A stretch of DNA of 64,000 nt from an uncultured Amylibacter sp. (GTDB lineage: Bacteria; Pseudomonadota; Alphaproteobacteria; Rhodobacterales; Rhodobacteraceae). Positions 6,338 to 20,876 of the stretch are shown piece after piece. The notes beneath the pieces are model-generated. The model did no database searches and had not been told where the DNA came from. It worked only from the letters and a program-made list of their open reading frames with translations. The translations under genes were made by a program, and so were the position numbers. Positions within the stretch are counted from its first letter, which is position 1. Each line of letters begins with the position of its first letter. The stretch covers positions 608 to 64,607 of the forward strand of contig CAXMSA010000002.1 in NCBI GenBank assembly GCA_964195605.1. The letters run 5' to 3'.

Positions 6338-6365
6338 ACCACTCCGTATCACTACCGATTGACGT

Positions 6366-6400
6366 AAGAGCCGCGGCGGATAAAGCTGCGGCTCTTTCTT
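6366..6400 (+). terminator. Rho-independent terminator
   Basis: Stem AAGAGCCGCGGC/GCTGCGGCTCTT, 7-nt loop, followed by TCTT, just after the oxidoreductase stop. Confidence 0.75.
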
Positions 6401-6401
6401 A

Positions 6402-7268
6402 TTGGATCCCCCCATGCCGCAACACGCGCTATACAAATCCGTTGCCATCATGTTTCTGGCCATGACCATGATTGTAATTGGTGATGCGGTGGGTAAGATA
6501 CTATCCGCTTCGGGGTTTCGCCCTTTGTTTATCGCATGGGCGCGGTTTGCGCTGGGCGCGTTGCTTATTTTGCCATTCAGTGGTCTAACACGCGCAGAGC
6601 TGCCGAACTTGCTGAACAGGTTCGTCATTTTGCGCGCCTGCTTTATTATAGGGGGGGTAAGTTCGATCCTGACTGCGCTGAAAACCGAGCCGATTGCCAA
6701 TGTTTATGGTGGGTTCTTCATTGGCCCCGTGATCTCTTACATCCTGTCAGCTATAATCCTGAAAGAACGCATCACACTGTGGCGTAGTTTACTGTTGATG
6801 ATCAGTTTCATCGGTGTGCTTTTGGTTGTTAAACCGGGTTTCGGTATGACCCCCGGCATGGGCTTTGCGATACTTGCAGGCAGTTTTTACGGTGCTTTTC
6901 TAGTGGCCACACGCAGGTTGGCAGGCCAGTATCGCCCGCGGTTTTTGCTGGTCTCGCATTTGTTGATCGGGGCTGTTGTTCTGTTCCCTTTAAGCATTGG
7001 CCCAGTGCCGGAAATGACCCCTTTCCTGGGTGGTTTCATCATAATCAGTGCCATTGCCTCTGCGGTGGGTAATATGTTGTTGATCGTTGTAAGCAGAACA
7101 ACGCCTGCAAATGTTATGGCCCCATTGGTTTACAGCCAACTTATATCGGCCACGGTTGCCGGCGTGTTGATTTTTTCTGACTGGCCAGATTACTATAGTC
7201 TGGTCGGTTTAATGGTGATTATAATCGCGGGGGTATCCTCTTTCTGGTTGGCGCAACATGGAAAGTAG
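6402..7268 (+). CDS. DMT/EamA family transporter
   Basis: About 10 hydrophobic segments, two-repeat EamA layout (FIGP..LKERIT; APLVYSQL). Confidence 0.85.
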   Translation: MDPPMPQHALYKSVAIMFLAMTMIVIGDAVGKILSASGFRPLFIAWARFALGALLILPFSGLTRAELPNLLNRFVILRACFIIGGVSSILTALKTEPIANVYGGFFIGPVISYILSAIILKERITLWRSLLLMISFIGVLLVVKPGFGMTPGMGFAILAGSFYGAFLVATRRLAGQYRPRFLLVSHLLIGAVVLFPLSIGPVPEMTPFLGGFIIISAIASAVGNMLLIVVSRTTPANVMAPLVYSQLISATVAGVLIFSDWPDYYSLVGLMVIIIAGVSSFWLAQHGK

Positions 7269-7275
7269 GCCCTGC

Positions 7276-7438
7276 TTGTAAATTTACAAAATTTACAAGT
7301 TTACAAGCCAAGCTTTACACGACCCATACAAAAATACACGAAAAACCCTTGTTTTTCTTATATTTTCAACACTTCCCCGATCTAATTTTGTAAATATAGT
7401 CACAGAATATGACCCTGAGTCGTGACTGACTTTACAAA
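7276..7438. promoter_or_regulatory. Array of TTTACAA/TTGTAAA motifs upstream of aceA (candidate ScfR/RamB-family operator sites)
   Basis: Copies at 7276, 7283, 7292, 7300, 7314 (TTTACAC), 7387 and 7431, in both orientations. Confidence 0.55.
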
Positions 7439-7454
7439 ATCAAGGAACTGAAAA

Positions 7455-9038
7455 ATGCCTTACGATACGCAAAGCACAGAGTTGCAAAACCTGATCGCAC
7501 AGCACGGAACTGCTTGGGCGGCGATCAACCCTGAATATGTGGCACGCATGCGTGCGCAAAACAAATTTCAAACTGGCATTGATATTGCAAAATATACCGC
7601 CAAGATTATGCGCGAAGATATGGCCGCTTATGATGCGGACAGCTCACAATACACCCAGTCCTTGGGGTGCTGGCACGGGTTTATCGGCCAACAGAAAATG
7701 ATTTCGATCAAGAAGCATTTCGGTACAACCAAAGGTAAATACCTGTACTTGTCCGGTTGGATGATCGCGGCATTGCGTTCCGAGTTTGGCCCATTGCCTG
7801 ACCAAAGCATGCATGAAAAAAGCTCTGTACCTGCGTTAATCGAAGAGCTTTACACATTCTTACGTCAAGCGGATGCCCGTGAATTGGGGGGCTTGTTTCG
7901 TGCGTTGGATGCGGCATCTGATGCGGCTGCTAAAGCCGAAGTGCAAGCCAAGATCGACAATTTCGAAACCCACGTTGTGCCGATCATCGCTGACATTGAT
8001 GCAGGCTTTGGTAACGCGGAAGCGACATATCTGCTGGCCAAACAGATGATCGAAGCGGGTGCTTGTGCATTGCAAATCGAAAACCAAGTGTCAGATGAAA
8101 AACAATGTGGCCACCAAGACGGTAAAGTAACTGTACCGCACGAAGATTTTCTAGCGAAAATCCGTGCCTGTCGCTACGCCTTCCTTGAATTGGGTGTGGA
8201 TGACGGTGTTATTGTTGCTCGTACAGACAGCCTAGGCGCTGGCCTAACCAAACAAATCGCAGTTACCAACACACCAGGCGATCTGGGTGATCAATACAAC
8301 AGTTTTCTGGATTGTGACGAAGTGACTTTGGATGATATGGCCAATGGTGATCTGGTAATCAAACAAGACGGAAAGTTGATGCGCCCGAAACGTCTGCCAT
8401 CAAACCTGTTCCAGTTCAAAGCCGGCACAGGCGTGGCCCGCTGCATTCTGGATAGTGTCACAAGCCTACAAAACGGTGCAGATATGATCTGGATTGAAAC
8501 TGAAAAACCGCATATCGGCCAAATCGGCGAGATGATCAATGAAGTGCGTAAAGCCGTACCTAACGCGAAGCTGGTTTATAACAACTCACCGAGCTTCAAC
8601 TGGACTTTGAGCTTCCGCCAGCAAATCTTTGACACATGGAATGATGAAGGCAAAGACGTGTCAGCTTATGACCGTGATGGGTTAATGTCTGTGGATTACG
8701 ATGGCACTGATCTGGCCACGGAAGCGGACGATAAAATCCGTACTTTCCAAGCTGATGCAGCACGTGACGCGGGTATTTTCCACCATCTGATCACCCTGCC
8801 GACATACCACACGGCAGCCCTGTCTACAGACAATCTGGCGAAAGATTACTTCGGTTCCGAAGGCATGCTGGGTTATGTGGCTGGCGTTCAACGCAAAGAA
8901 ATCCGCCAAGGCATTGCCTGTGTGAAACACCAGAATATGTCAGGTTCCGACATGGGCGATGATCACAAGGAATACTTCTCAGGTGACGCGGCCCTAAAAG
9001 CGGCTGGCGAAGACAACACGATGAACCAGTTCGGTTAA
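7455..9038 (+). CDS. aceA: Isocitrate lyase (long, Pseudomonas-type)
   Basis: YLYLSGW, DIDAGFG, and catalytic loop QVSDEKQCGHQDGK; 527 aa. Confidence 0.95.
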   Translation: MPYDTQSTELQNLIAQHGTAWAAINPEYVARMRAQNKFQTGIDIAKYTAKIMREDMAAYDADSSQYTQSLGCWHGFIGQQKMISIKKHFGTTKGKYLYLSGWMIAALRSEFGPLPDQSMHEKSSVPALIEELYTFLRQADARELGGLFRALDAASDAAAKAEVQAKIDNFETHVVPIIADIDAGFGNAEATYLLAKQMIEAGACALQIENQVSDEKQCGHQDGKVTVPHEDFLAKIRACRYAFLELGVDDGVIVARTDSLGAGLTKQIAVTNTPGDLGDQYNSFLDCDEVTLDDMANGDLVIKQDGKLMRPKRLPSNLFQFKAGTGVARCILDSVTSLQNGADMIWIETEKPHIGQIGEMINEVRKAVPNAKLVYNNSPSFNWTLSFRQQIFDTWNDEGKDVSAYDRDGLMSVDYDGTDLATEADDKIRTFQADAARDAGIFHHLITLPTYHTAALSTDNLAKDYFGSEGMLGYVAGVQRKEIRQGIACVKHQNMSGSDMGDDHKEYFSGDAALKAAGEDNTMNQFG

Positions 9039-9254
9039 CATACATAGTACCAAACCCTTTCTGAAGGGCCTTCGGGGGAAACCTTGCAGGCCTTTTACTT
9101 CTGTGGCCGTAAAACCAAGAACTATTACCTTCGTATGCTTGCCTCTTCAATTCACAAAATATTACCTATTTAAGATAGCGATTGACGTATTTTTTCAATA
9201 TGCTTTTGCTGGCGTTTAAGGCTTCACCATAAAGCCAGTGATACTATTTCAGGA

Positions 9255-10802
9255 ATGCCGCATATGTCTGATAACCTTAAAATTCTTTTTGTTATAACTG
9301 ATCAGTTTCGGGCTGATTGTATTGAAGGTGCTTTGGCAGATCATGTGGATCTGCCTAACATTCAGGCGTTCCGCAAAGAGGCGGTGACATTCGTCAAACA
9401 TTACTCTGTCACCAACCCATGCGGACCATCGCGGGCCAGTATTCTAACGGGTAAATATGCGATGAACCATCGGTCTATCCGCAATGGTACACCATTATCC
9501 AATGACATAACAAATATTGCGCTTGAGGCCCGTAAATCGGGTTATGACCCGATGTTATACGGCTATACCGATACCAGTTTTGATCCGCGCACGCATCACC
9601 CGAACGACCCTGATCTGACAAGCGAGGAAAATGTTTTGCCGGGGTTCAGGGAAGTGCTGGAAATGCGGTCTAAACAAAGCTACCCTTGGCGGGCGTATCT
9701 GAAATCCAAAGGTTATGATCTGCCAGATTACGCGCATTTTTATGATGCCATATCCCCTGATCCAATTAGGGCACCGCGGCCGGATGATCCGCCATTTTAT
9801 AAGGCTGAGGATAGTGACACTGCATTCCTGACCAACTCACTTCTTCATGACCTGTCTGTACGTATGGATCAAAACTGGTTTGCGCTTGCTACTTATATCC
9901 GCCCGCATCCCCCGCTGGTGGCCCCTGAGCCTTACAATAAGATGTATGACCCAAGCACATTACCCAAGCCCGCGCGCATGTCCACACAGGCAGAGCAGGC
10001 GGCATCGCATCCTTATATGGCAGGGGCTGTGCAACACCCGACGGTTAACACCGTTGTGTGCGGCCTTGATCCGCTGGATAATGAAAACGATAATGATGTG
10101 CAGCAGCTGCGTGCGATTTATCTGGGCTTGGCAACGGAGGTGGATAGTCATTTTGGCCGGATCATCAATTTCCTAAAAGAAACTGACCAGTATGATGATA
10201 CTCTGGTTGTCTTTGTTGCTGACCACGGTGAAATGCTGGGTGAGCATCACTTGTGGGGTAAACAAAACCCTTATGAAGCGGCTTACCATATTCCATTGAT
10301 TATCCGTGATCCAAAAAATACGGCACAACATGGCACCACAGTTCAGACTTTTACCGAGTCTATTGACGTGACCCCCACAGTTTTGGATTTGATCGGGCAT
10401 CAAGTACCTGCAGGTATGGACGGTGTTTCTTTACGCCCCTTCCTAGAAGGTAAAACCCCTGCGAAGTGGCGAGATTCTGTTCATCTGGAACTTGATTACA
10501 GTGAGCCGGATGAGGTGACTATTTGGCAGCAGGCCGCCGGGGTCTCAACCCATGAAGCAAATCTGGCAATCCTGCGTGAAGAGCAATTTAAATTGATACA
10601 TTTCAATGGCGACCTGCCGCCAATGTTATTTGATCTGCAAGCTGATCCGCATGAATTACATGATCTGGCGGCAGACCCTACCCATGCACCCACATTGCTA
10701 CGCTTGACCCGAAAACTACTAAGCCACCGCATGAAATATGCGGACAGGACTTTAGCGGATGTCAGAATTACGCCTAACGGGGTTGTGGGTTATACTCCCT
10801 AA
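9255..10802 (+). CDS. Sulfatase-superfamily hydrolase, phosphonate monoester hydrolase/phosphodiesterase-like
   Basis: DQFRAD metal motif, formylglycine motif CGPSRASILTG, YIRPHPP, ADHGEMLGEH. No signal peptide. Start may be ATG 9264. Confidence 0.85.
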   Translation: MPHMSDNLKILFVITDQFRADCIEGALADHVDLPNIQAFRKEAVTFVKHYSVTNPCGPSRASILTGKYAMNHRSIRNGTPLSNDITNIALEARKSGYDPMLYGYTDTSFDPRTHHPNDPDLTSEENVLPGFREVLEMRSKQSYPWRAYLKSKGYDLPDYAHFYDAISPDPIRAPRPDDPPFYKAEDSDTAFLTNSLLHDLSVRMDQNWFALATYIRPHPPLVAPEPYNKMYDPSTLPKPARMSTQAEQAASHPYMAGAVQHPTVNTVVCGLDPLDNENDNDVQQLRAIYLGLATEVDSHFGRIINFLKETDQYDDTLVVFVADHGEMLGEHHLWGKQNPYEAAYHIPLIIRDPKNTAQHGTTVQTFTESIDVTPTVLDLIGHQVPAGMDGVSLRPFLEGKTPAKWRDSVHLELDYSEPDEVTIWQQAAGVSTHEANLAILREEQFKLIHFNGDLPPMLFDLQADPHELHDLAADPTHAPTLLRLTRKLLSHRMKYADRTLADVRITPNGVVGYTP

Positions 10803-10982
10803 TCAGTTCCGGCTGCTTTGACTGCGATAGATAAGGTCGGAAATGCCGCCACGGTTTAACCCGATATCATTCAGTTCTTTATCAGTTAAATGATTCAGGT
10901 GTTTTATCGTGTCACGATGGGCAGTCCAATCTAGGACGTACCTTAAAAACCTGAAAATAGAAGTTTCCTTTAACCATTTCAT
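10803..10982 (-). CDS. DUF1127 (YjiS-like) small protein, 59 aa; not in the ORF track
   Basis: Manual translation MKWLKETSIFRFLRYVLDWTAHRDTIKHLNHLTDKELNDIGLNRGGISDLIYRSQSSRN. L..L.D..L.DIGL.R..I signature, GGAG RBS, 16 bp after the ABC ATPase stop. Confidence 0.85.
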   Translation of the reverse strand: MKWLKETSIFRFLRYVLDWTAHRDTIKHLNHLTDKELNDIGLNRGGISDLIYRSQSSRN

Positions 10983-10998
10983 GTGCTTGTCTCCAAAT

Positions 10999-12000
10999 CT
11001 AAGGTGTCATCAACTCTTCCCAGCGATGGCAAGCAACTTCATGCCCGTGACTGGAATGTTGCAATATCGGTTCTACCTCACGGCAGTGATCCGTTACATA
11101 CGGACAACGTGTGTGGAACTTACAGCCCGATGGTTGGTTGGTGGGTGACGGAATTTCGCCTTCCAGCTTTTGCGCTTTACCTCGATCATCCGGGTCAAGT
11201 GACGGGATCGCGGATAGCAGTGCCTTGGTATAGGGGTGCCGTGGATTTGCAAACAACTCGCGCGTTGGCGCGGTTTCCACCAGACGGCCCAGATACATCA
11301 CGGCCACGTGGTCACAGATATGCGCCACCACACTTAAATCGTGACTGATAAACAGGAACGTCAGCCCCATTTCCTGTTGAATTTCTTTCAATAGGTTCAG
11401 AACATCAGCCTGAATAGACACATCCAACGCGGCCACACTTTCATCGGCCACAACGAAATTCGGATTAGATACCAGCGCACGCGCAATGGAAATCCGCTGC
11501 CGTTGACCACCCGAAAATGCGTGTGGGAAGCGGCGCAAGTGCTCTAGGTTCAAGCGGCATTTCGCAGCTATTTCACGCACCCATTTATCGGTTTCTTCGC
11601 GTGATGATGTCAGGCCCATCACCTCTACTGGCTCGGCAATAATATCGCGCACGGTCATGCGCGGGCTTAGTGCCGCGTAAGGGTCTTGAAAGATCAGCTG
11701 TGCGCGTTTGCGGTATTCATTCAGCTCGCTTGGTGAAAGGCTTGTCAGGTCAAAACTTGCTTCGCCGTCATTATAAGCAACTGTCCCACGTGAGATCGGG
11801 GCGGCTTGTAACAAAGCTTTGCCCAGCGTGGTCTTGCCAGAGCCACTTTCACCTACAAGGCCGAAAAAACTGCCCTTGGCAATGTCCAGATTGACATTTT
11901 CAACTGCTTTGACCACAGGTTTCGGGCCAAACAGGCTCTTGCCGCGCAATGGGTAATGAACTGAAAGATCACGGGCTTCTATTAGTACGTCATCACTCAT
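10999..12000 (-). CDS. Oligopeptide/dipeptide-family ABC transporter ATP-binding subunit (OppF/DppF-like)
   Basis: GESGSGKT, FSGGQRQR, ADESVAALD, C-terminal oligo_HPY domain. Confidence 0.93.
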   Translation of the reverse strand: MSDDVLIEARDLSVHYPLRGKSLFGPKPVVKAVENVNLDIAKGSFFGLVGESGSGKTTLGKALLQAAPISRGTVAYNDGEASFDLTSLSPSELNEYRKRAQLIFQDPYAALSPRMTVRDIIAEPVEVMGLTSSREETDKWVREIAAKCRLNLEHLRRFPHAFSGGQRQRISIARALVSNPNFVVADESVAALDVSIQADVLNLLKEIQQEMGLTFLFISHDLSVVAHICDHVAVMYLGRLVETAPTRELFANPRHPYTKALLSAIPSLDPDDRGKAQKLEGEIPSPTNQPSGCKFHTRCPYVTDHCREVEPILQHSSHGHEVACHRWEELMTP

Positions 12001-12995
12001 TTTGAAGCTCCCTCATCGTAAATATGGCACGCAACATTATGCCCTTTTGTGACCTCACTGAAACCTGGTATCTTGGTAGAGCAAACATCGCCCACTACCG
12101 AAGAACACCGTGTGCTGAACACACAGCCAGGTGGCCGTTCCAGTGGTGATGGAATATCGCCCGGGATAGCGGTTAGTGGATTGTCCAAATCATCAAGGCT
12201 TGGCAGTGCTGCAATCAGGCCCTTGGTATAAGGGTGTGATGGATTACGAATTACTTCGCGCACAAGACCTTGTTCCACAAGGCGGCCCAAATACATCACG
12301 GCCACTTTATCAGCGGTTTGGGCTATCACACCCAGATCGTGCGTAATGAAAACAATCCCCATGCCAAATTCAGTGACAAGATCTTTCATCAAATCTATCA
12401 CCTGTGCTTGAATGGTCACATCCAGTGCTGTTGTAGGCTCATCCGCGATCAGCAATTTAGGCTTGGTTGAAAGAGCCATCGCGATCATCGCACGCTGGCG
12501 CATCCCGCCTGACAACTCGAACGCATATTGCCTGAAGCGCTCGCTCGCGTCGGAAATCCCCACGCGGTCCAGCATTTCAATGGAAACTTCTTGCGCGCGC
12601 TTTGCATTCATATCCGTATGGATCTGCAACTGTTCGACCATCTGATCCCCGATGGTGATCGCGGGTGCGAAACTGGCCATTGGTTCTTGGAAGATCATTG
12701 AAATAGCCCCGCCACGGATCACTTTCAGATCAGTGGAGGTTTGCAATGACATCACGTCAATCGGCCCGTCTTCCAGATGCAAAGTGACTTTGGTGTCGTC
12801 ACTATAGATCGCGTTTGATGGGTTCAGTTTCATCAAAGATTTAGCAGTAACCGATTTTCCCGATCCACTTTCGCCCACAAGGCCCATGACCTCGCCTGCT
12901 TCCAGTGTGAAAGAAACATTGTCTACTGCGGTGATCCGACCCTCATCCGTATCGAATTGAAGGGTCAGGTTTTCTACATCTAAAAGTCGTGTCAT
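11997..12995 (-). CDS. Oligopeptide/dipeptide-family ABC transporter ATP-binding subunit (OppD/DppD-like)
   Basis: GESGSGKS, LSGGMRQR, ADEPTTALD, HPYT. Confidence 0.93.
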   Translation of the reverse strand: MTRLLDVENLTLQFDTDEGRITAVDNVSFTLEAGEVMGLVGESGSGKSVTAKSLMKLNPSNAIYSDDTKVTLHLEDGPIDVMSLQTSTDLKVIRGGAISMIFQEPMASFAPAITIGDQMVEQLQIHTDMNAKRAQEVSIEMLDRVGISDASERFRQYAFELSGGMRQRAMIAMALSTKPKLLIADEPTTALDVTIQAQVIDLMKDLVTEFGMGIVFITHDLGVIAQTADKVAVMYLGRLVEQGLVREVIRNPSHPYTKGLIAALPSLDDLDNPLTAIPGDIPSPLERPPGCVFSTRCSSVVGDVCSTKIPGFSEVTKGHNVACHIYDEGASK

Positions 12996-14140
12996 TTGCT
13001 GCTATCCGAATAGGGGTCGGCAGCATCGCGTAATCCGTCACCGACGAACACAAAGGCCAACACAAGTATAATAAAGAAGATCACTGGTATGAAGTACCAC
13101 TGATAGTTAAGTAGAACATCGGCACTTGTGACATTTTGCAACATCACCCCAAGTGAATTCACAGGGTCCTTCAGGCCCAACCCGATAAAGCTAAGGGCGG
13201 TTTCTGACAGAATCATATAGGGAAAAGAAATCACCAAATCGACGATGATATAGCTGGTAAAGCTAGGCAATAAGTGGCGTCGAATGATATGCGCAGGCGT
13301 TGCACCACATAGTTGAGCTGCCAGCACATATTCCTGATTTCGTTCCGTTAACAAGTGCGTTCGTATTCGTCGGGCAAGGGTAGGCCAACCAATCAGTCCT
13401 AATACCATCGAGATGAAAAAGAACCTCGCCTCCGCGCTCCATGTGTCTGGTATAAAGGCGGCCAAGGCCATGAACAGTGGAATACTGGGGATGGTGCGTA
13501 CCGTATCAGTTATCATTTGCAAGCCAGAGTCGATCCAGCCACCGTAATAACCTGCAATCCCCCCTATCGCCAATGCCAGAAGGAAAGCAATAACCACCCC
13601 GATGGTTCCCACCGCCATTGATGTATTGATCGCGGTCAGGGTTCGGGAATAAATATCCTTACCTGTCGAGTCTGTGCCAAAAATATGGATCATGCCTTTG
13701 TCGACACCAAATAAATGGGTCTCAAAATTCACGCCCAGAAACGTATATGGCACACCTTTGCTGAAAAACTCAACATAGCGACGCGCTTCAAGGCTGGTGT
13801 CGGTTTTCGTCACCCAGCGAAAGTTGGTTAGTGCCGAACGGGTACGTTCTGACGTATAAACAAACGGGCGTAGCGAACAACCGCTGTCATCGCAAAAAGA
13901 CGGGATTTGTGGTGCGCCGTTCATATATTCCTTATCCCGCCCCGCAATGGTGGCGTCATATGGCGTCAGGAATGGTGCGAATATACCTGAAAGGATCAGA
14001 AAAATCAGAACCCATGCCCCAGCAAGGGCGGATTTGTTTTTCTTGAACCGCTGCCAGATTAACTGGCTTTGCGAGGCAGTGAAATAGGCCTCTTTCAGCT
14101 TTTGGTCGGCAGCGGCATCTATGTTTGTTGTATCGGTCAT
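12992..14140 (-). CDS. Oligopeptide-family ABC transporter permease (OppC-like)
   Basis: GTDSTGKDIYSR, EAA-like loop EYVLAAQLCGA..IIRRHLLP. Confidence 0.9.
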   Translation of the reverse strand: MTDTTNIDAAADQKLKEAYFTASQSQLIWQRFKKNKSALAGAWVLIFLILSGIFAPFLTPYDATIAGRDKEYMNGAPQIPSFCDDSGCSLRPFVYTSERTRSALTNFRWVTKTDTSLEARRYVEFFSKGVPYTFLGVNFETHLFGVDKGMIHIFGTDSTGKDIYSRTLTAINTSMAVGTIGVVIAFLLALAIGGIAGYYGGWIDSGLQMITDTVRTIPSIPLFMALAAFIPDTWSAEARFFFISMVLGLIGWPTLARRIRTHLLTERNQEYVLAAQLCGATPAHIIRRHLLPSFTSYIIVDLVISFPYMILSETALSFIGLGLKDPVNSLGVMLQNVTSADVLLNYQWYFIPVIFFIILVLAFVFVGDGLRDAADPYSDSSK

Positions 14141-14145
14141 ATCTC

Positions 14146-15150
14146 TTATCCTACAATGCTGCGACGAACGCGTGGATCGGTAAGGGCGAGGATGATGTCA
14201 GTAATAAAGTTAATGCTGACAATACTTGCGGTCAGCAAGAAAATGATCGCCCCCGCTAACTGCTGATCGTTTGATCGCGCCAAGGCTTCGATCAACAATG
14301 AACCGGCTTCGGTCAATGTCAGGATCAGGGCCACGATAGGCAACTCGTTGAAGATACGGTTCAAATCGAACCCTAGTGAGTTGATGATCGGGCTTAGTGC
14401 GTGGCGTGCAGGATAGCGCATCAACAATCTGCGGCCTGACACACCGCGTGCAGCGGCGGCAGTCACATAGAGCTTGCCAATTTCATCAGACATCAAGGCA
14501 CGTACTGTTTGGATGGCAAACGCGGTCGCAGACCAGCCCAGAATAAAGATCGGCAACCAGACGTGGCCAAGGAAATCCATTACCCGGTCATACGACCATG
14601 CCGCATCCCGGAACTCTTTTGAAAACAATCCCGTCAGACTGTCTCCGAACATCACGGTGGAGAACAGCATGATCATCAGGGCCAGCAGGAAGTTTGGCAG
14701 GGCCAGACCTAGGTAGCTGACCAGACGCAGGCTGTTGTTCAAAACAGCATTTTTTGAAGTTGCAGCCAGAATGCCAACAGGAATGGCAATTGCGTAGGCA
14801 AGAAGCAGGGCAGATAAGCAAAGCCCCAAGCTTAACCAGAATTTCTCACCCAGAAGCTGGTTGATATTCAAACGCAGGATACAGCTGTCACCGTATTCGC
14901 CTTGGAAGGCATTGATGATCCAGCCACCCCAGCGTTGAATGTAAGGTTGGTCAAGGCCAAGCCGGACACGTTCTGCCTGTATATCAGCAGGAGAGATCAC
15001 AGCCCCTTGAGAGTTCTTAAAGGCTAGGTACCGCTCGGCGCAATCGCCGGGTACCAATTCCATCAAGGAAAAAACAATGAATGAGACAAGTACAAGCGTG
15101 AAGATTGCCAACACCGCCCGAACCACAACAAATTTGGAAAATTCTAACAT
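14146..15150 (-). CDS. Oligopeptide-family ABC transporter permease (OppB-like)
   Basis: ELVPGD..RLGLDQP..YVTAAAARGVS; hydrophobic profile and operon position. Confidence 0.9.
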   Translation of the reverse strand: MLEFSKFVVVRAVLAIFTLVLVSFIVFSLMELVPGDCAERYLAFKNSQGAVISPADIQAERVRLGLDQPYIQRWGGWIINAFQGEYGDSCILRLNINQLLGEKFWLSLGLCLSALLLAYAIAIPVGILAATSKNAVLNNSLRLVSYLGLALPNFLLALMIMLFSTVMFGDSLTGLFSKEFRDAAWSYDRVMDFLGHVWLPIFILGWSATAFAIQTVRALMSDEIGKLYVTAAAARGVSGRRLLMRYPARHALSPIINSLGFDLNRIFNELPIVALILTLTEAGSLLIEALARSNDQQLAGAIIFLLTASIVSINFITDIILALTDPRVRRSIVG

Positions 15151-15202
15151 TGCTACGTTAATCCCCCCTGGAATTTAGATGGCTATTTTTTTGATTTTGT
15201 AA

Positions 15203-15228
15203 CCTTGGGCAATCGAAATTGCCCAAGG
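15203..15228. terminator. Perfect 11-bp hairpin between the binding-protein and permease genes (mRNA stabiliser or partial terminator)
   Basis: CCTTGGGCAAT-CGAA-ATTGCCCAAGG; the loop reads UUCG on the transcribed minus strand. Confidence 0.65.
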
Positions 15229-15255
15229 CTTTTAGGTCAGAGACTTAAAGACAGA

Positions 15256-17298
15256 TTATTCGTCTAGGTACCACTGTGTCGGGCGGTAAGGATATGCCCG
15301 GTAGTAAGCATAAGACTGCGTCTTGAACTCGGTGAAGTTCTTCAGTGCATTGTTGTGATAGATCGGTGCAACTGCTTTCACAGTACCGATAAACAGCAGG
15401 CTTTTGGCCATGGTCTCTACCAGACGTGCACCAATTGTATTTGATTCATCAGAACCAGCTACAGCACCTTGGAATGCATCAATGTCTGCCATCATATCAT
15501 AGACATACTGTGGTGGTTTCACACCAGACGCACCATTTTGGTCAAGATATTCAGCCCAAAGTATACCGTTCCGCACGTTGAAGTAGTTATCAAACGGTGG
15601 TTGGAACACTTCGGCGTTGCCTAGGATAACAGCCAATGGTTGACCTTTAGCATACATCATCACATCAAGTTTGTTAGAAGACTGTGCTGAACGAAATTCA
15701 TCCGTTGTCACTTCTTTAACTGTATTATTGATGCCAACGTCTTTCCAGTTTTGGCCAACAAGTTCGACCAGTTTCACTGAAATACCTTGTGTCGCAACCT
15801 GAAGGTTCAGCACCAGTGTTTCGCCATTTGGCAACTCACGCATACCGTCGCCATCTGTGTCAACCATACCGATCTCATCAAGCAATGCATTGGCTTTTCC
15901 AGCATCGAACTGAGTCATATAGTTGTCCATCTCTTCGCTTACAAACGAAGGCGATGGTGAGAAAGCAACATACTGCGCTGGTTTACCCAGACCGAAATAA
16001 ACAACTTCGTTCATTTCGTCACGGTTCATCGCAACAGACATCGCCTGACGGAACCGTACATCACCGAACACTTTACGCTTCTCAAGGTTCTCGGAATTTA
16101 CGTTAAACGCGAAAACACCAAATGCAACTTCAGGCTTCAGATCAACGCTAAAGTTACCTTTTTCCTGATTTTCCATCAACAATGGCGCATAATCTAGGTT
16201 CAGTGACTGTGCCTTATAATCAACTTCTGCGTTGACCAATTTCAGCAACCGCACTTCACTTTCACCAACAAACAACTCGTCTTGCTCATTGATATATGGC
16301 AATTGGTTACCCGCAGTATCAACCTGGAAGAAATACGGGTTAGCAACCAGATGACGGCCTTCCGTGCTTTCAGCGATGATGATGTGGCTTTCCAATGTTG
16401 GCACCGTATCAGCAGGCATAGCCGCTAGTTTGTCAGAATTAGTCAACATCGGTGTCGGCGTGTCCATCCAGTCAGAGCTGCCATAGTAAGCTGCAACCGC
16501 TGCATAACCGTTTTCAAATCCCATAGCTTGTGCATTTGCATCTGCATCTGCATCTACAGACGGGTGATATTTACCCAGGAAGTGCATTGGCTGGAAACCT
16601 TGCGCATAGTGGTTGGCAAAGTGTGACAACAGGCCCGGTTTTGGTGACGGCAGGTTGAACTGGATAGTTTGCTCATCAACAACCACAAGGTTCATTTTTT
16701 CGCCAGCAACCAAAACATAATCTTTTGGCTTTTCACGCACATTGCTATCAACCGCTAGATTGTCATACCAGAACTTAACGTCACGGGCACCAAATGGCGC
16801 GCCATCTGACCATTTGTGGCCTTTACGCAGATTGAAAGTCAGCTGTGTGAAATCAGCGTTCCATGCCCAGCTTTTAGCAACGTTTGGCACGATGGTTGTC
16901 AGATCGTCTGAATAACGCACCAAGTTCACGTGACGTACAGACATAAAGTCTGATGTACCGGACTCTGTTGCATTTGAAAGCGCATCAAATGTGCCGCCGT
17001 ATTTACCAACAGAAGCGTAAGGTGTCATAATCAATGGCTCTGCCGGAATACGGTCTGCAAGACCAGGCAGCGGGCCATTACCGCGAATGCGTGCATTCAG
17101 CGCTTCAGACGCAGGGTTTGCGGCAAATTCCATAGTACAGTTGCCCAGAGATTGATATTCGGCAAGTTCAAATACTTGTGGAAAAGCACCGCTCGCGATG
17201 CCTGCCATGTCGGAGACTGTCGCTGCAGGGCATGTGCCGGCAAGGGCAGCTCCCGTCAGCGTCAGCCATGCGACACCTGATAAGGTTAGTGTTTTCAT
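15256..17298 (-). CDS. Family-5 ABC transporter substrate-binding protein
   Basis: Signal peptide, PNVAKSWAWNADFTQLTFNLRKGHKWSDGAPF, GNQLPYI, D.RFRQAMSVA.NR; 680 aa. Confidence 0.92.
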   Translation of the reverse strand: MKTLTLSGVAWLTLTGAALAGTCPAATVSDMAGIASGAFPQVFELAEYQSLGNCTMEFAANPASEALNARIRGNGPLPGLADRIPAEPLIMTPYASVGKYGGTFDALSNATESGTSDFMSVRHVNLVRYSDDLTTIVPNVAKSWAWNADFTQLTFNLRKGHKWSDGAPFGARDVKFWYDNLAVDSNVREKPKDYVLVAGEKMNLVVVDEQTIQFNLPSPKPGLLSHFANHYAQGFQPMHFLGKYHPSVDADADANAQAMGFENGYAAVAAYYGSSDWMDTPTPMLTNSDKLAAMPADTVPTLESHIIIAESTEGRHLVANPYFFQVDTAGNQLPYINEQDELFVGESEVRLLKLVNAEVDYKAQSLNLDYAPLLMENQEKGNFSVDLKPEVAFGVFAFNVNSENLEKRKVFGDVRFRQAMSVAMNRDEMNEVVYFGLGKPAQYVAFSPSPSFVSEEMDNYMTQFDAGKANALLDEIGMVDTDGDGMRELPNGETLVLNLQVATQGISVKLVELVGQNWKDVGINNTVKEVTTDEFRSAQSSNKLDVMMYAKGQPLAVILGNAEVFQPPFDNYFNVRNGILWAEYLDQNGASGVKPPQYVYDMMADIDAFQGAVAGSDESNTIGARLVETMAKSLLFIGTVKAVAPIYHNNALKNFTEFKTQSYAYYRAYPYRPTQWYLDE

Positions 17299-17397
17299 TA
17301 TATATTCTCCCAGTTGTTATTCCATTGTTTTTTTAAGTCAGACTAAAACGCAGCCTGCTTGCTATGAGATCGATAGCATCCTTTTCCTGATGGAATC

Positions 17398-17442
17398 AGT
17401 TTATACAAACTACATTACAGTTTTGTAACAGTTTTGTAATAT
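17398..17442 (-). promoter_or_regulatory. PhoB-type promoter: Pho box plus -10 element
   Basis: The minus strand reads ATATTAC-AAAA-CTGTTAC-AAAA-CTGTAAT (11-bp period), then 10 bp, then TAAACT; it points at the binding-protein gene. Confidence 0.75.
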
Positions 17443-18165
17443 TAGATATTCTCTCCCTCTTACAAGCGTCGCAATCAAATGCGCACGACCGATTGAAGAA
17501 GATTGGACAAGAGTCACTGAACTGTCAATAAATTTTCAGGATTTCACAGTAAATTCATACATTTTCGAGTTGTCTTAATTTTGTTAAATCTTATCGCTGT
17601 CTGTACTACCTATCCCCCGTTGGCACGACCTGACCATGTTACATTGGTGGCATTGTAGTAAAATCAACCGCTTTGATTGGGCGTCTAACAGCACGGACAT
17701 CTGCGCTATTTCACACGATAACAAGCGTTTTATGCCAAGTTTCAAAGATTTTACGCCGGTAAAGCCCTGTGATGCCGATTGCTATAAGGCGACTAAACGA
17801 TTTGGTTACCATTGATTTTCCGGGCGGAATGCCCATCACGGGAATATGCATCACCATCAATATTGCATCTATCTCCTGACCTAATGCCACCCTTAAATTG
17901 CATATTTCCAAGTCTATGCAAAAATCTTTTAAAACTCCTAGGTCTGTAGAAATATCTTTTAAAATGTGCCGTTTGGCCTGCACCTTGATCAACCCTTCAT
18001 CCGATTCGCCAAATCGAAATGATCCTGATTGATTATTGTCACCACATAAGCTGCTTATTTAAAGCAATCGACGGTCACCCTTTCGGCTGTCTTGTTTTCA
18101 GAGTTTATGCGTCATCAGAGCAGAATGATTCTGATCTTTTACTTTTATTAAATTAGTTAATCCAC

Positions 18166-18233: not shown

Positions 18234-20681
18234 ATGAATACCCAAAGTACCAGCGCATTCCAGATTGAAGGCATGTCTTGTGCATCGTGCGTGAGACGGG
18301 TGGAAAAAGCATTGTTAGCAGTTCCCAATATTACCAAAGCTGTAGTAAACCTCGCCACAGAAACAGTTCAAGTCAGCTACGATAACCCTGTCACCACGGT
18401 CGATGTGGTTAAAATCTTATCAGATACAGGCTACCCCGCAGTCTCTTTGGACGTAACATTAGATATCGAAAACATGTCTTGTGCGTCTTGTGTCGGACAG
18501 GTTGAAAAAGCCCTGAAAGCCGGGGCAGGGGTGTTGGATGCATCCGTTAACCTTGCGTCCGAGACAGCATCAGTGCGTTTTACCGCAGGTGTCATATCCC
18601 CTGAAAAAATCGCAGGATTAGCCACAGAAGCTGGTTACCCCGCGAAAGTGAAAACACAAAGCAATGTTGATAAAACAGACCGTAAAGCGCAAGAAATTGC
18701 AACGCTTGGGCGGCTGACATTATTAGCCGCAGTCTTGGCCTTGCCCGTTTTTATAATAGAGATGGGTGGCCATATCTTCCCCGCCCTGCACTTATTTATC
18801 GATAATAGCTTAGGGATGCAAAACAGCCGCCTTTTGCAATTTGTTCTTACCACTGCCGTACTGTTTGGCCCCGGTCTGTCGTTTTATACCAAAGGGTTTC
18901 CTGCCTTAATCAAGGGCACCCCCGATATGAATTCACTTGTCGCACTTGGTACATCTGCAGCTTACGGGTTTTCGCTGGTAGCAACATTTGCCCCCAACTT
19001 GCTGCCTGCTGGTACAGCCAATGTCTATTATGAAGCCGCTGCGGTCATCGTGGTGCTGATCCTGCTTGGCCGCTTTATGGAAGCCCGCGCCAAAGGGCGC
19101 ACTGGGCAGGCCATTCGAAAACTTATCAGTCTGCAACCAAAGACTGCATTTGTGGAACGGGACGGGAAAACAATTGAATTGGTCATTGATGAGATTGTCG
19201 TAGGCGATCTGATCCATACCAAACCGGGTGAGAAGATTGCAGTAGATGGCACAGTTCAAACCGGTAGATCTTATGTTGATGAAAGCATGATCACGGGTGA
19301 GCCGGTTCCGGTGGAAAAGACAAATGGTGCGCATGTGGTTGGTGGCACGATAAACGGCACAGGCGCTCTTGCATTTATTGCTACCAAAGTTGGCAGTGAC
19401 ACCATGTTGGCGCAAATCATCCATATGGTTGAACAGGCGCAAGGGGCTAAACTACCTGTTCAGGGCATGGTCGATAAAATCACGGCATGGTTCGTACCTG
19501 CGGTGATGATTATCGCACTACTTACCGTTATTCTCTGGTTTATCTTCGGGCCGGAGCCTGTTCTTGGGTTTGCGCTTGTCGCGGGGGTATCGGTTCTGAT
19601 CATTGCTTGCCCGTGTGCTATGGGCCTGGCCACGCCAACCTCGATAATGGTGGGAACGGGACGCGCAGCTGAAATGGGCGTTTTGTTTCGCAAAGGGCAA
19701 GCGTTACAAATGTTACAAGAGGTCTCTATCGTTGCCGTAGATAAAACGGGTACGCTTACCGAAGGCCATCCCGAACTGACCGACTTGATTGTAGCCGACG
19801 GGTTTGATCCCGACGAGGTACTTGCGCATGTCGCCGCCATAGAAGCGACCTCGGAACATCCGATTGCGCAGGCAATTCTGCGGGCCGCCAACGGCATGAC
19901 CTTGCCCGACATTCAGGATTTCACGTCGATCACTGGTTACGGTGTGCAAGCAACAGTTAATGGTAAAACCGTGCTTATTGGCGCAGACCGTTTTATGGTC
20001 CGGGAAAATGTGACCCTTGATGGGTTGAAAGCCCGTGGGGTTGCGTTAGGTCAAAGCGGCAAAACACCGCTTTATGCCGCGATTGACGGCCAGATTGCCG
20101 CCGTGATTGCGGTGTCAGACCCGATCAAAGAAACCACCCCCGCTGCAATTGCAGCACTTCATGATCTGGGCCTGAAAGTGGCGATGATCACAGGCGATAA
20201 TACTGGCACCGCAAACGCCATCGCCAAACAGCTTGGTATAGATCACGTGGTGGCCGAGGTTTTGCCTGAAGGCAAAGTTACCGCATTGAAGGCCTTGCGT
20301 GCAGGTGGCCACAAACTCGCCTTTGTCGGTGACGGCATCAATGATGCGCCTGCACTTGCGGTGGCAGAGGTTGGCATTGCGATCGGAACAGGTACCGATG
20401 TGGCGATTGAGGCAGCCGATGTGGTGCTGATGTCAGGTGATCTGCAAGGTGTGGCCAACGCTTTTGCGATCAGCCAACGCACCATGCAAAACATTCGCCA
20501 AAACCTGTTCTGGGCATTTGGATACAATATTTTACTGATCCCTGTAGCCGCAGGTGCACTTTACCCGTTAAGCGGTGTTCTGTTATCACCTGTTCTGGCT
20601 GCGGGTGCTATGGCACTGTCCAGCGTTTTCGTTTTGACAAATGCGCTTCGGTTGCGTTGGGTCAATGTTGGAAAATCATAA
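18234..20681 (+). CDS. copA: Cu(I)-translocating P1B-type ATPase
   Basis: Two MSCASC HMA domains, [23 protein letters not shown] and MALSS motifs. Confidence 0.95.
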
Positions 20682-20876
20682 AGAACGATGAAAACCAGAA
20701 CTATCCACGTAAAATTATCTCATTCGTAGCCTCTTCGTACTGGCAGATGAATATCTGCCCATTTCATAATCAAGAGATGTTAATAAATTCGGAAAATTAT
20801 CTAAATTCGACAAGGAGAGGCTTGAATATTATTTCCAACTGTATCTATTAACAATTGCTCAAGTTAGGATGTCGAC

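Follow-up and report, generated by a model that had tools for sequence, protein, structure and literature searches.

Known systems for uptake and cleavage of organophosphorus esters

In E. coli and rhizobia, the UgpBAEC-UgpQ system combines a Pho-box promoter with ABC import of an intact organophosphate ester (glycerophosphodiesters) and a cytoplasmic esterase that acts afterwards. The locus described here follows the same outline. However, UgpB belongs to binding-protein family 1 and UgpQ has a GDPD fold, whereas our locus encodes a family-5 substrate-binding protein (SBP) of 680 aa and a formylglycine-dependent phosphonate monoester hydrolase (PMH) of the alkaline phosphatase superfamily. 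In the AccABCDE-AccF system of Agrobacterium Ti plasmids, a family-5 SBP imports the sugar phosphodiester agrocinopine and AccF is a cytoplasmic phosphodiesterase. The likeness is that a 'peptide/nickel'-type importer carries a phosphodiester, which a partner enzyme cleaves inside the cytoplasm; the differences are that AccF is GDPD-like and not a PMH, and that the system is opine-specific and regulated by AccR. No AccA-like sequence was found among the significant PDB matches of our SBP.

The characterised PMHs, SpPMH (4UPK), AtPMH (4UPH), RlPMH (2VQR) and BcPMH/PehA (2W8S), differ from the enzyme described here in that they were studied on synthetic substrates, and the open-access literature searched yielded neither a natural substrate nor a pathway for these enzymes. 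For 2-aminoethylphosphonate (AEP), the transporters AepXVW, AepP, AepSTU and PhnSTUV are known together with PhnWX or PhnWYA. In several species phnW-phnX or phnW-phnY-phnA, with a LysR regulator of the phn type, likewise adjoin the module described here or are fused to it, but the known transporters take up free AEP (PMC8316502), whereas this importer is of the Dpp/Opp type and is accompanied by an esterase, which implies bound (esterified) AEP.

We propose a two-part pathway, in which an organophosph(on)ate ester would be imported and then cleaved by the PMH. We favour this reading by a narrow margin, at a probability of roughly 0.55. The module would thus be a variant of Ugp/UgpQ-type logic and a testable lead to a natural PMH substrate.

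Organisation of the locus

The window, by which we mean the whole 64-kb stretch of DNA that was analysed, comes from a marine Amylibacter-like bacterium and contains the following features.

9150..9187, plus strand: conserved element 5' of the PMH gene, ATTCACAAAATATTAC (9150-9165) and then TTGACG (9182-9187), from an alignment of upstream regions
9255-10802, plus strand: PMH-like hydrolase, 515 aa (Pfam Sulfatase, 154 bits, and SGSH_C)
10803..10982, minus strand: DUF1127 small protein, 59 aa, closing the ABC operon (PF06568, 35.1 bits; cut-off 23.3)
10999..12000, minus strand: ABC ATPase 2, DppF/OppF-like with oligo_HPY domain (domain matches)
11997..12995, minus strand: ABC ATPase 1, DppD/OppD-like with oligo_HPY domain (domain matches)
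12992..14140, minus strand: permease 2 (Pfam domains OppC_N and BPD_transp_1)
14146..15150, minus strand: permease 1 (BPD_transp_1_N and BPD_transp_1, domain search)
15203..15228, no strand: inverted repeat with an 11-bp stem between the SBP and permease 1 genes (sequence scan)
15256..17298, minus strand: periplasmic family-5 SBP (SBP_bac_5), 680 aa (PF00496, 185.8 bits)
17400..17405, minus strand: -10-like TATAAA hexamer, 8 nt 3' of the Pho box (sequence)
17414..17442, minus strand: Pho-box-like element of three repeats with 11-bp phasing, ATATTAC-AAAA-CTGTTAC-AAAA-CTGTAAT (sequence)

The five minus-strand genes from 17298 down to 10999 form a complete family-5 (Dpp/Opp-type) ABC importer, with 4-nt stop/start overlaps at both ATPase genes. 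The inverted repeat is likely an intra-operon hairpin that sets the ratio of SBP to permease, a role that is inferred. The DUF1127 gene has a GGAGA ribosome-binding site 8 nt upstream and is co-transcribed with the ABC genes; it is convergent with the PMH gene and the two stop codons abut directly, with zero gap. Pieces of the SBP and ABC sequences are present in environmental metatranscriptome contigs; the four metatranscriptomes contained no pieces of PMH transcripts, which counts against the main reading.

The SBP has an N-terminal signal peptide and invariant Cys23 and Cys54, and many marine Alpha- and Gammaproteobacteria encode homologues that are 71-90% identical to it. Its nearest solved structures are SPH1118, a pectin-oligosaccharide binder (1e-62), and AgpA, an alpha-galactoside binder. 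That these relatives are oligosaccharide binders and not phosphoester binders counts against the main reading.

The hydrolase belongs to the PMH clade

The closest solved structure to the hydrolase in a PDB search was 4UPK, a 'phosphonate monoester hydrolase' (E 2e-179, residues 7-509), and the protein is about 65% identical to this crystallised enzyme of Silicibacter pomeroyi. Further matches were 4UPH (7e-118), 2VQR (9e-108) and 2W8S (9e-105), while arylsulfatases and choline sulfatases followed at 1e-52 or weaker. The top NCBIfam match was PehA, with 478.7 bits where the equivalog cut-off is 900. The CGPSR motif corresponds to C56-G-P-S-R60, and C56, P58 and R60 are shared by 95% or more of 48 aligned PMHs, as are D16, N71, H72, Y104, T105, D106, H218, D323, H324 and K336. 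No signal peptide is present in the sequence, in line with a leaderless, cytoplasmic protein. The hydrolase is therefore a member of the characterised PMH clade with the full active-site set; its enzyme activity is inferred. The sequence-only reading, which had described a peptide/nickel-type ABC operon ending in a DUF1127 gene and convergent with a cytoplasmic, PMH-like CGPSR hydrolase, held on all of these points.

PMHs are promiscuous and hydrolyse sulfate esters too, which counts against the main reading. An alternative is that the enzyme is a cytoplasmic sulfatase acting on an imported organosulfate ester, for example 2-aminoethyl sulfate or a sulfated sugar, paralleling choline-O-sulfate uptake and BetC. 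In its favour are the sulfatase fold and CxPxR motif, the promiscuous sulfatase activity of PMHs (PMC5870055), the anionic or neutral oligosaccharides bound by the closest solved relatives of the SBP, and ethanolamine-pathway neighbours in other species (see below), which are compatible with 2-aminoethyl sulfate. Against it, the enzyme is far nearer to characterised PMHs than to arylsulfatases or choline sulfatases, the recurrent neighbours are phnW, phnX, phnY and phnA, an IMPase-family phosphatase and a Na/Pi symporter with no sulfate-related genes among them, and the promoter box is of the Pho type in a context that is not Cbl/CysB-type. We consider an organosulfate cargo very unlikely.

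When the PMH upstream regions of the window and six Amylibacter-like loci were aligned, the element at 9150..9187 was conserved. It is possibly a shared regulator site or a promoter, a function that is only inferred.

A PMH is the most conserved neighbour of the transporter

We compared 80 species-level loci whose SBPs are 68-95% identical. The PMH cluster was the sole widely conserved neighbour, present at 47 of the 80 loci, and the runner-up cluster was found at 17. For 48 well-flanked loci, where 6 kb or more upstream and 3 kb or more downstream were available, a PMH homologue was counted within 10 kb in 38, in both Alpha- and Gammaproteobacteria and in four arrangements (19 downstream and convergent, 6 downstream and co-directional, 11 upstream in the same orientation, 2 divergent); none was found within 10 kb in the remaining 10. 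Absence of genomic co-occurrence with the hydrolase had been set beforehand as an outcome that would refute the proposal, and the opposite was found. The paired PMHs are 36 to 90% identical to that of the window, while the transporter stays at or above 68%, so the transporter is paired with 'a PMH' and not with a single block inherited together. PMH paralogues also occur apart from the transporter, which, like the 10 loci without a PMH, counts against the main reading. The archetypal RlPMH gene (pehA, on pRL9) immediately precedes a different SBP_bac_5/oligo_HPY ABC importer.

Catabolic neighbours in other species

In Ca. Njordibacter and relatives, the order is lysR, then phnA, phnY and phnW, then SBP-perm-perm-ATP-ATP, followed by an IMPase-family gene and a PMH; phnA (532 bits), phnY (797) and phnW (583) all score above their cut-offs (408, 636 and 401, respectively). 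Several Rhodobacterales carry lysR-phnW(-phnA-phnY)-[EamA]-SBP...PMH together with a Na/Pi symporter, and on plasmid pSC52_2 all genes of SBP-perm-perm-ATP-ATP-phnW-phnX-PMH-like are co-directional. At Ruegeria conchae and Sulfitobacter-type loci we found DeoR, an IMPase-family gene, a Na/Pi symporter and GS-like, ALDH, Fe-ADH and amidohydrolase genes. The latter set makes up the ethanolamine gamma-glutamylation pathway, which has been demonstrated in Phaeobacter (PMC10132767). AEP genes lie beside only 7 and IMPase or Na/Pi genes beside 14 of the 48 well-flanked loci, which counts against the main reading.

These recurrent phnW/phnY/phnA or phnW/phnX genes, IMPase-family phosphatases and Na/Pi symporters independently support a phosphorus-containing cargo, for which ligand binding is inferred. 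The 64 kb of the window lack phn, ethanolamine-pathway, IMPase and Na/Pi genes, so the aminoethyl inference rests entirely on other species.

A second alternative is that the transporter takes up free AEP or phosphoethanolamine, a phosphonopeptide or another peptide conjugate, and that the PMH is a loosely associated accessory that does not act on the cargo. In its favour, phosphonopeptides classically enter cells through systems of the Dpp/Opp type. The gammaproteobacterial ABC genes directly follow phnA-phnY-phnW, an opposite-strand gene lies between the ABC genes and the PMH, and an MlrC-like M81 peptidase is recurrent at Sulfitobacter-type loci. On the other hand, the PMH is far commoner as a neighbour than any phn gene or peptidase, the PMH-like gene on pSC52_2 stands in one co-directional string with the ABC genes and phnWX, small dedicated AEP transporters are already known and belong to other binding-protein families (PMC8316502), and a 680-aa SBP resembling oligosaccharide binders is oversized for AEP. 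We regard this alternative as unlikely.

In the ester pathway that we prefer, the SBP would capture a soluble phosphonate monoester or phosphodiester in the periplasm, the permease and ATPase pairs would import it, and the cytoplasmic formylglycine/Mn-type PMH would hydrolyse its R-O-P ester bond. Because of the neighbours in other species, the most likely cargo would be an ester of AEP or of its oxygen analogue phosphoethanolamine, with an undetermined alcohol part, for example the head group of a phospho(no)lipid after deacylation, or a sugar or polyol that carries AEP or phosphoethanolamine. AEP freed by cleavage would be degraded by PhnW-PhnX or PhnW-PhnY-PhnA; alternatively, phosphoethanolamine or ethanolamine would be freed and broken down by a phosphatase of the IMPase type together with the gamma-glutamyl ethanolamine pathway. 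Import of a phosphorus-containing ester and its cleavage by the PMH, as first read from the window, are thus supported by linkage, phosph(on)ate neighbours and promoter repeats, while the ligand, the cleaved bond and the activity are inferred.

A Pho-box-like promoter in the Amylibacter lineage

The core 18-mer of the Pho-box-like element, CTGTTACAAAACTGTAAT, lies at 17431-17414 on the minus strand, with the degenerate third repeat ATATTACAAAA directly upstream at 17442-17432. It is the single perfect match to CTGTNAY-N4-CTGTNAY in the window, at -133 from the SBP start codon, where we estimate a chance expectation of about 0.03 per window. Compared to the E. coli consensus, 15 of 18 positions agree. 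No sigma-70 -35/-10 pair was found at this promoter; TATAAA is present without a -35, as would suit a promoter that depends on an activator. Five Amylibacter relatives keep the phased repeats with spacers that vary.

All loci, 2.86 M positions altogether, were scanned with a position-weight matrix that was chosen after the window site had been seen. Of 21 sites scoring at least 14, 14 lie on the sense strand within 300 bp 5' of the SBP gene, compared to 0.18 expected (binomial P ~1e-24), and none on the antisense strand of the same 300 bp; below this threshold the antisense strand scores too. Strong boxes occur in 13-18 of 80 species; elsewhere the module stands beside catabolic genes and LysR, DeoR or RpiR regulators, so that it is as much nitrogen/carbon catabolic as phosphorus-scavenging. 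The phnCD promoter of L075 shows weak phased repeats only. The TGTnACA half-site is nearly self-complementary, and another regulator that binds direct repeats is not excluded.

It could be argued that the repeats are not a Pho box and that another regulator or substrate induction controls the operon in this organism, as part of carbon or nitrogen catabolism. Most orthologous loci have such regulators and catabolic genes, and strong Pho-like sites are few; the half-site is quasi-palindromic, and a same-genome Pho promoter for comparison is lacking. Against this stand the consensus match with 11-bp phasing, A/T spacers and a position 8 nt before a -10 that has no -35, the conservation of the repeats while spacers vary, the sense orientation of 14/14 promoter sites scoring at least 14, and the Amylibacter loci, which have no local regulator and have acquired a DUF1127 gene, of a family shown to act on PhoR. 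We lean against the non-Pho explanation.

In the Amylibacter lineage, the operon would instead be placed under a PhoB-type promoter with the Pho box in place of the -35, and the module would thereby serve phosphorus scavenging. PhoB-type control and Pi-dependent induction are inferred from sequence alone, without a same-genome control such as pstS. Two claims of the sequence-only reading thus held in part: the 'canonical' Pho box is near-canonical, and for phosphate-starvation control there are Pho-like repeats concentrated at the SBP promoter.

DUF1127 is a lineage-specific addition

Members of the DUF1127 family bind PhoR and hold the Pho regulon in check (PMC12501420). Like the Agrobacterium proteins and E. 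coli YjiS, the window protein is small and carries this Pfam domain; it differs in that its gene is the final cistron of a transporter operon with putative Pho regulation. If it works as in Agrobacterium and E. coli, it may bind PhoR and so dampen the Pho response in a negative feedback loop, a role that is inferred by analogy. As a proposed component of the system it held only in part. The gene is present here, but it is an Amylibacter-lineage addition outside the core module and is absent at all loci compared other than L001-L004, L007 and L043. Copies 81-93% identical occupy the same position in L001, L002, L003 and L043, the copy in L004 is disrupted and that in L007 is divergent.

An importer operon and a hydrolase gene converge in the window

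Two convergent transcription units fill positions 9255-17442: the gene of a hydrolase of the phosphonate monoester hydrolase (PMH) clade on the plus strand, and the operon of a family-5 ABC importer on the minus strand.

Features of the importer-PMH module (positions, strand, description)
9255-10802, plus: PMH-clade hydrolase, 515 aa, Pfam Sulfatase PF00884 154 bits (cut-off 25) and SGSH_C
10803-10982, minus: DUF1127 small protein, 59 aa, PF06568 35.1 bits (cut-off 23.3)
10999-12000, minus: ATPase with oligo_HPY, Dpp/Opp-type
11997-12995, minus: ATPase with oligo_HPY, Dpp/Opp-type
12992-14140, minus: permease, BPD_transp_1
14146-15150, minus: permease, BPD_transp_1
15256-17298, minus: SBP_bac_5 binding protein, 680 aa, signal peptide ending ...AALA/G
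17442 down to 17400, minus: Pho-box-like element and -10, ATATTAC-AAAA-CTGTTAC-AAAA-CTGTAAT-gtagtttg-TATAAA

The five importer genes overlap or are closely spaced (the two ATPase genes have a stop/start overlap of 4 nt) and make up a full Dpp/Opp-type set, with a SBP_bac_5 substrate-binding protein (SBP), two BPD_transp_1 permeases, one of them with OppC_N, and two oligo_HPY ATPases. The ATPases scored highest on Dpp/Opp models, while PhnT/PhnK-type models scored far lower and under their cut-offs. When the SBP was compared with OppA, DppA and NikA, no NCBIfam equivalog cut-off was met, the best score being that of Opp4A (112 bits vs 650). Its nearest solved relatives are oligosaccharide binders, SPH1118 (oligogalacturonates, 1e-62) and AgpA (alpha-galactosides). 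Peptide or nickel is the default annotation of this importer; its genomic context, from which we infer the cargo, instead suggests phosph(on)ate esters. Within the 105-nt gap between the SBP gene and the first permease gene we found a perfect inverted repeat with an 11-bp stem (15203-15228), which by analogy resembles intra-operon hairpins that raise the stability of binding-protein mRNA.

The hydrolase lacks a signal peptide and carries the motif C56-G-P-S-R60. The closest solved structure is 4UPK, deposited under the name 'phosphonate monoester hydrolase' (E 2e-179 over residues 7-509, ~65% identical in the printed alignment), and the remaining crystallised PMHs gave 7e-118 (4UPH), 9e-108 (2VQR) and 9e-105 (2W8S). 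By these E values, the hydrolase is nearer to the characterised PMHs than to the dimeric arylsulfatases 4UPL/4UPI (~1e-52) or choline sulfatase (~1e-34). PehA (NF045661) was the top NCBIfam model, with 478.7 bits below an equivalog cut-off of 900. Since PMH structures match best and the PehA score stays under its cut-off, the enzyme belongs to the PMH clade without being a PehA equivalog. C56-G-P-S-R60, D16, N71, H72, Y104, T105, D106, H218, D323, H324 and K336 are kept in at least 95% of 48 aligned PMHs; we take these residues to be the formylglycine motif and the metal-binding and substrate-binding set. That the window enzyme would hydrolyse phosphonate monoesters and phosphodiesters, carry a formylglycine modification and form a tetramer is inferred from its clade, without an assay, mass spectrometry or a structure. 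No gene for a formylglycine-generating enzyme was found among the ten neighbouring ORFs scanned. Upstream of PMH, positions 3845-9038 encode a dimethylglycine/sarcosine-dehydrogenase-like protein (DAO + GCV_T), an EamA transporter and isocitrate lyase.

Importer and PMH remain linked across species

SBP homologues that are 71-90% identical (among the 120 best) occur in marine Rhodobacterales, Hyphomicrobiales and Gammaproteobacteria, with the closest ones in Amylibacter MAGs. One genome per species was scanned, which yielded 251 SBP relatives, and the best 80 loci were analysed with 10-kb flanks. Upon clustering of the ORFs, PMH alone, apart from the ABC genes themselves, was widely conserved as a neighbour, being found in 47 of the 80 loci, and the next commonest non-ABC cluster was present in 17. 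The sequence-only reading had proposed that a Pho-box ABC operon imports a phosphorus-containing ester which the PMH-like enzyme cleaves, and that a lack of genomic co-occurrence with the hydrolase would refute this. We checked this and it did not occur, as PMH is present in 38 of the 48 loci having at least 6 kb upstream and at least 3 kb downstream. The observation behind that reading is confirmed, and its interpretation is supported by the available comparative tests; we narrow it to a proposed import and de-esterification of aminoethyl-phosph(on)ate esters.

In these 38 loci, PMH lies downstream and convergent, as in the window (19), downstream and co-directional (6), upstream on the same strand (11) or divergent (2). 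The paired PMHs are 36-90% identical to that of the window, and the transporter at least 68%. The linkage was repeatedly rearranged and yet kept with different PMH sub-lineages, which is a signature of functional coupling. Because it survives both rearrangement and varied PMH sub-lineages, we consider a functional coupling of transporter and PMH very likely.

Between Rhodobacterales and Gammaproteobacteria (Ca. Njordibacter, Granulosicoccus), SBPs are 70-75% and permeases 80-90% identical. This cross-class conservation is unusual for a transporter and suggests that the module may have spread horizontally among marine bacteria. In two loci a second, distant sulfatase-superfamily gene (502 aa, ~26% identical to PMH) occupies the convergent-downstream position, beside PMH in L014 (16341-17849) and in place of PMH in L020 (16365-17873).

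The association is not restricted to this SBP clade. On pRL9 of Rhizobium johnstonii 3841, pehA, which encodes the crystallised RlPMH, immediately precedes a second, unrelated SBP_bac_5 gene, followed by two oligo_HPY ATPases, two permeases and a LacI regulator. As pehA thus adjoins an unrelated family-5 importer, the pairing of PMH with a family-5 importer is a wider rule than one SBP clade. The converse linkage is not universal: the PMH paralogues of the R. pomeroyi megaplasmid and of Ruegeria sp. B32 are not beside a family-5 importer, and the Aliiroseovarius paralogue likewise stands in another context. This 53% identical paralogue, on the Aliiroseovarius crassostreae plasmid NZ_CP080779.1 (locus L085, 5039-11521), lies next to, and divergent from, a small ABC system consisting of a 377-aa binding protein, one ATPase and two permeases. 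A. crassostreae was reported to encode AepX, a binding protein for 2-aminoethylphosphonate (AEP) (PMC8316502).

Neighbouring genes point to aminoethyl-phosph(on)ate esters as a possible cargo

In Ca. Njordibacter and related Gammaproteobacteria (L029, L031, L038 and L039), the gene order is phnA, phnY, phnW, SBP, permease, permease, ATPase, ATPase, with a phn-type lysR on the opposite strand ahead and an IMPase-family gene (opposite strand), then PMH, behind. The NCBIfam scores exceed the equivalog cut-offs for PhnA (532 vs 408), PhnY (797 vs 636) and PhnW (583 vs 401). Four Rhodobacterales loci (L006, L040, L049 and L065) show the order lysR-phnW(-phnA-phnY)-[EamA]-SBP...PMH, often with a Na/Pi symporter; the EamA transporter near PMH in the window is unrelated to this phn-associated EamA cluster. 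Furthermore, on plasmid pSC52_2 a 47% identical SBP heads a co-directional SBP-perm-perm-ATP-ATP-phnW-phnX-'sulfatase-like' series, in which the 'sulfatase-like' gene is a PMH homologue (42% identical). As phnWYA and phnWX loci were both seen, each of the two known hydrolytic AEP routes occurs fused to this family of transporters and a PMH.

A second context was found on a Ruegeria conchae plasmid and in many Sulfitobacter-type loci, which encode DeoR, an IMPase-family (HisN-like) phosphatase, a Na/Pi symporter with a PhoU-like tail, a GS-like enzyme, an aldehyde dehydrogenase, an Fe-alcohol dehydrogenase and an N-formylglutamate-amidohydrolase-like protein. The last four correspond to the ethanolamine gamma-glutamylation pathway shown in Phaeobacter sp. 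MED193 (PMC10132767). In Roseobacter loci an aldehyde dehydrogenase clusters with PhnY; with 197 bits vs a cut-off of 636 it is not PhnY itself and belongs to the ethanolamine pathway. None of the AEP, ethanolamine and phosphate-handling neighbour genes described in other species was found in the 64 kb of the window.

AEP and phosphoethanolamine are isosteres that differ in having a C-P or a C-O-P linkage. Because of this isosterism and the recurrence of both gene contexts, the simplest reading that covers them, inferred from neighbours, is that the importer carries aminoethyl-phosph(on)ate esters and PMH cuts the R-O-P bond. In the absence of ligand data, we regard a phosphate or phosphonate ester as the likely cargo, and assign a probability of roughly 0.45 to an aminoethyl-phosph(on)ate ester in particular. 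The alcohol part R could be a sugar, inositol or glycerol, since the nearest solved SBPs bind oligosaccharides and the pehA neighbourhood in Rhizobium is sugar- or inositol-like.

In eight loci (L053, L059, L060, L061, L066, L070, L075 and L076), genes for RpiR, a DAO-family FAD oxidoreductase and an MlrC-like M81 peptidase lie between PMH and the SBP gene, a trio that is recurrent in Sulfitobacter-type loci. Its oxidase might be a PbfD-like AEP oxidase replacing PhnW, a possibility that is untested.

The module shares with Ugp/UgpQ the import of an intact ester that is then cleaved in the cytoplasm, a logic also common to the agrocinopine Acc system. However, UgpB is a family-1 protein and UgpQ has a GDPD fold, in contrast to the Pfam assignments in the window, which makes the module an analogue. 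As binding-protein family and esterase fold are said to differ for Ugp/UgpQ and Acc alike, it is a member of neither. Nor does it belong to the known AEP transporters PhnSTUV, AepXVW and AepSTU (PMC8316502), as its SBP is of the SBP_bac_5 family and its ATPases are Dpp/Opp-like. PMHs have served as models of catalytic promiscuity since 1996-2008. In the searchable literature we found nothing on a natural substrate or pathway of PMH, on this transporter or on an ethanolamine link, beyond a speculation in 2017 that PMH may release phosphonates by cleaving phosphonate esters in marine DOM (PMC5649143) and a remark in 2026 that pmh is located in phnW clusters (PMC13608971).

A Pho-box-like element in the importer promoter

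A Pho box consists of two 7-bp CTGTCAT-like direct repeats with a 4-bp A/T spacer and takes the place of the -35, some 10 bp ahead of the -10. The window promoter meets this layout, with repeats, A/T spacer, a -10 and no -35, and the element ends 8 nt upstream of TATAAA. No sigma-70 -35/-10 pair was predicted at the SBP promoter, which fits an activator-dependent promoter. The core 18-mer CTGTTAC-AAAA-CTGTAAT (17431-17414) fits CTGTNAY-N4-CTGTNAY perfectly, as no other site in the 64-kb window does. It agrees with the textbook E. coli Pho box CTGTCATA(A/T)A(A/T)CTGTCA(C/T) at 15 of 18 positions, so that the earlier description of the box as canonical held only partly and near-canonical is more exact. 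In five Amylibacter relatives, whose SBPs are 73-95% identical, the 7-bp repeats are kept while the 4-bp spacers differ (AAAA, AAAT, AAAG, ATAG), and a -10-like hexamer follows the repeats at the same distance.

We scored a two-half-site weight matrix on both strands of the 80 related loci (2.86 million positions). At a score of at least 14 there were 21 sites in all, of which 14, from 13 species, lie on the sense strand in the 300 bp ahead of the SBP gene, against an expectation of 0.18; the antisense strand of the same regions had none. At a score of at least 16, 8 of 11 sites fall in the SBP upstream region. The other strong sites are inside coding sequence. As strong sites concentrate upstream of the SBP gene, the repeat is a genuine cis-element that recurs in the promoter of this operon. 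The matrix was picked after the window's site was known, the related species are not independent, and the half-site TGTnACA is nearly self-complementary. An earlier shuffle-based test placed 34 of the 80 upstream regions above the 95th percentile, but the reverse strand gave 25 of 80, and it was replaced by the whole-locus scan.

The element of the sequence-only reading is thus present, conserved in relatives and concentrated at this promoter, whereas Pi induction is only inferred. We lean towards control of the operon by PhoB in this organism, an inference made without PhoB-binding or Pi-induction data and without a Pho promoter from the same genome as control. Neither the window nor the fetched loci contain a pst or pho gene. 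Pseudosulfitobacter sp. SM2401 (L075) encodes phnC and phnD above NCBIfam cut-offs (19863-21826), 3.6 kb downstream of the module, with weak 11-bp-phased repeats upstream (GGGTCAT, CTTTTAC, ATGTAAA); this promoter is a poor Pho-box control, although it belongs to the sole known Pho-regulon-type pair to hand. From the position of the -10, transcription would be expected to start near 17393. The 5' leader (17296-17395) folds no better than shuffles (z -0.46), and no Rfam family was found in the window.

Upstream of the PMH gene, the element ATTCACAAAATATTAC (9150-9165) is conserved in all Amylibacter-like loci and resembles the degenerate repeat of the transporter promoter. Co-regulation of PMH and importer through similar elements is therefore possible, but unproven.

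A DUF1127 gene at the operon end

The DUF1127 ORF begins 16 nt past the last ATPase gene, behind a GGAGA ribosome-binding site, and its product fits the family profile (PF06568, <~70 aa). When an HMM built from the Amylibacter copies was used, copies were found only in the window, L001, L002, L003 and L043; the gene is disrupted in L004 and divergent in L007. The gene was added to the operon only in the Amylibacter lineage, which has the clearest Pho box and lacks a local regulator. In Agrobacterium and E. coli, small proteins of the DUF1127 family bind PhoR and keep the Pho regulon in check (PMC12501420). By analogy, a Pho-induced DUF1127 protein might give negative feedback.

The stop codons of DUF1127 and PMH abut without a spacer (10800-10805), there is no terminator between the two convergent genes, and the minus-strand operon has its sole terminator-like hairpin within the PMH coding sequence (10340-10319). 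Antisense overlap of the two transcripts is therefore probable, as inferred from sequence alone.

A possible wider role for PMH enzymes

Most marine phosphonate and much of the marine organic phosphorus is ester-bound and not free. An import-then-de-esterify route would therefore fill a real gap in the marine phosphorus/phosphonate cycle. A bolder reading is that the module is the missing physiological context of PMH enzymes. In this reading, marine bacteria, and soil bacteria with a different SBP, would have in it a dedicated route to take up phosphonates in their natural esterified form and to set AEP free inside the cell. The cargo would be AEP bound in the head groups of phosphonolipids or in fragments of phosphonoglycans, plus phosphoethanolamine analogues, and the module would be the first step that feeds 'bound' phosphonates into PhnWX or PhnWYA. 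Some lineages would have wired the route to the Pho regulon with DUF1127 as a feedback protein. Taken whole, with route, cargo and Pho wiring, we place the odds slightly against it.

The comparative result links PMH to a specific, highly conserved importer, and links this pair to the catabolism of AEP and ethanolamine as well as to the handling of phosphate. It yields a few candidate ligands and identifies carriers that can be cultured (Pseudosulfitobacter sp. SM2401, Pseudohalocynthiibacter aestuariivivens BS-W9, Ruegeria conchae M340, strain SC52 and Ca. Njordibacter isolates), and re-annotates a large 'peptide/nickel' transporter group, a relative of which is encoded by at least 251 species representatives.

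Occurrence and transcription

The module sequence occurs mainly in marine-sediment, marine and ice metagenomes. In four unrelated metatranscriptomes there were contigs with parts of the SBP and ABC genes, some of them identical, and none with parts of PMH. The operon is transcribed in nature; these contigs carry no information on phosphorus status or transcript start.

Beyond the importer promoter, four related Amylibacter loci (L001, L002, L004 and L043) have an intact kbl-tdh between copA and the transporter. In the window, kbl-tdh is deleted and a fragment remains in the 935-bp intergenic region, an L-threonine 3-dehydrogenase remnant (17687-18045, minus strand) with 49% identity over 92 aa and a second short piece.
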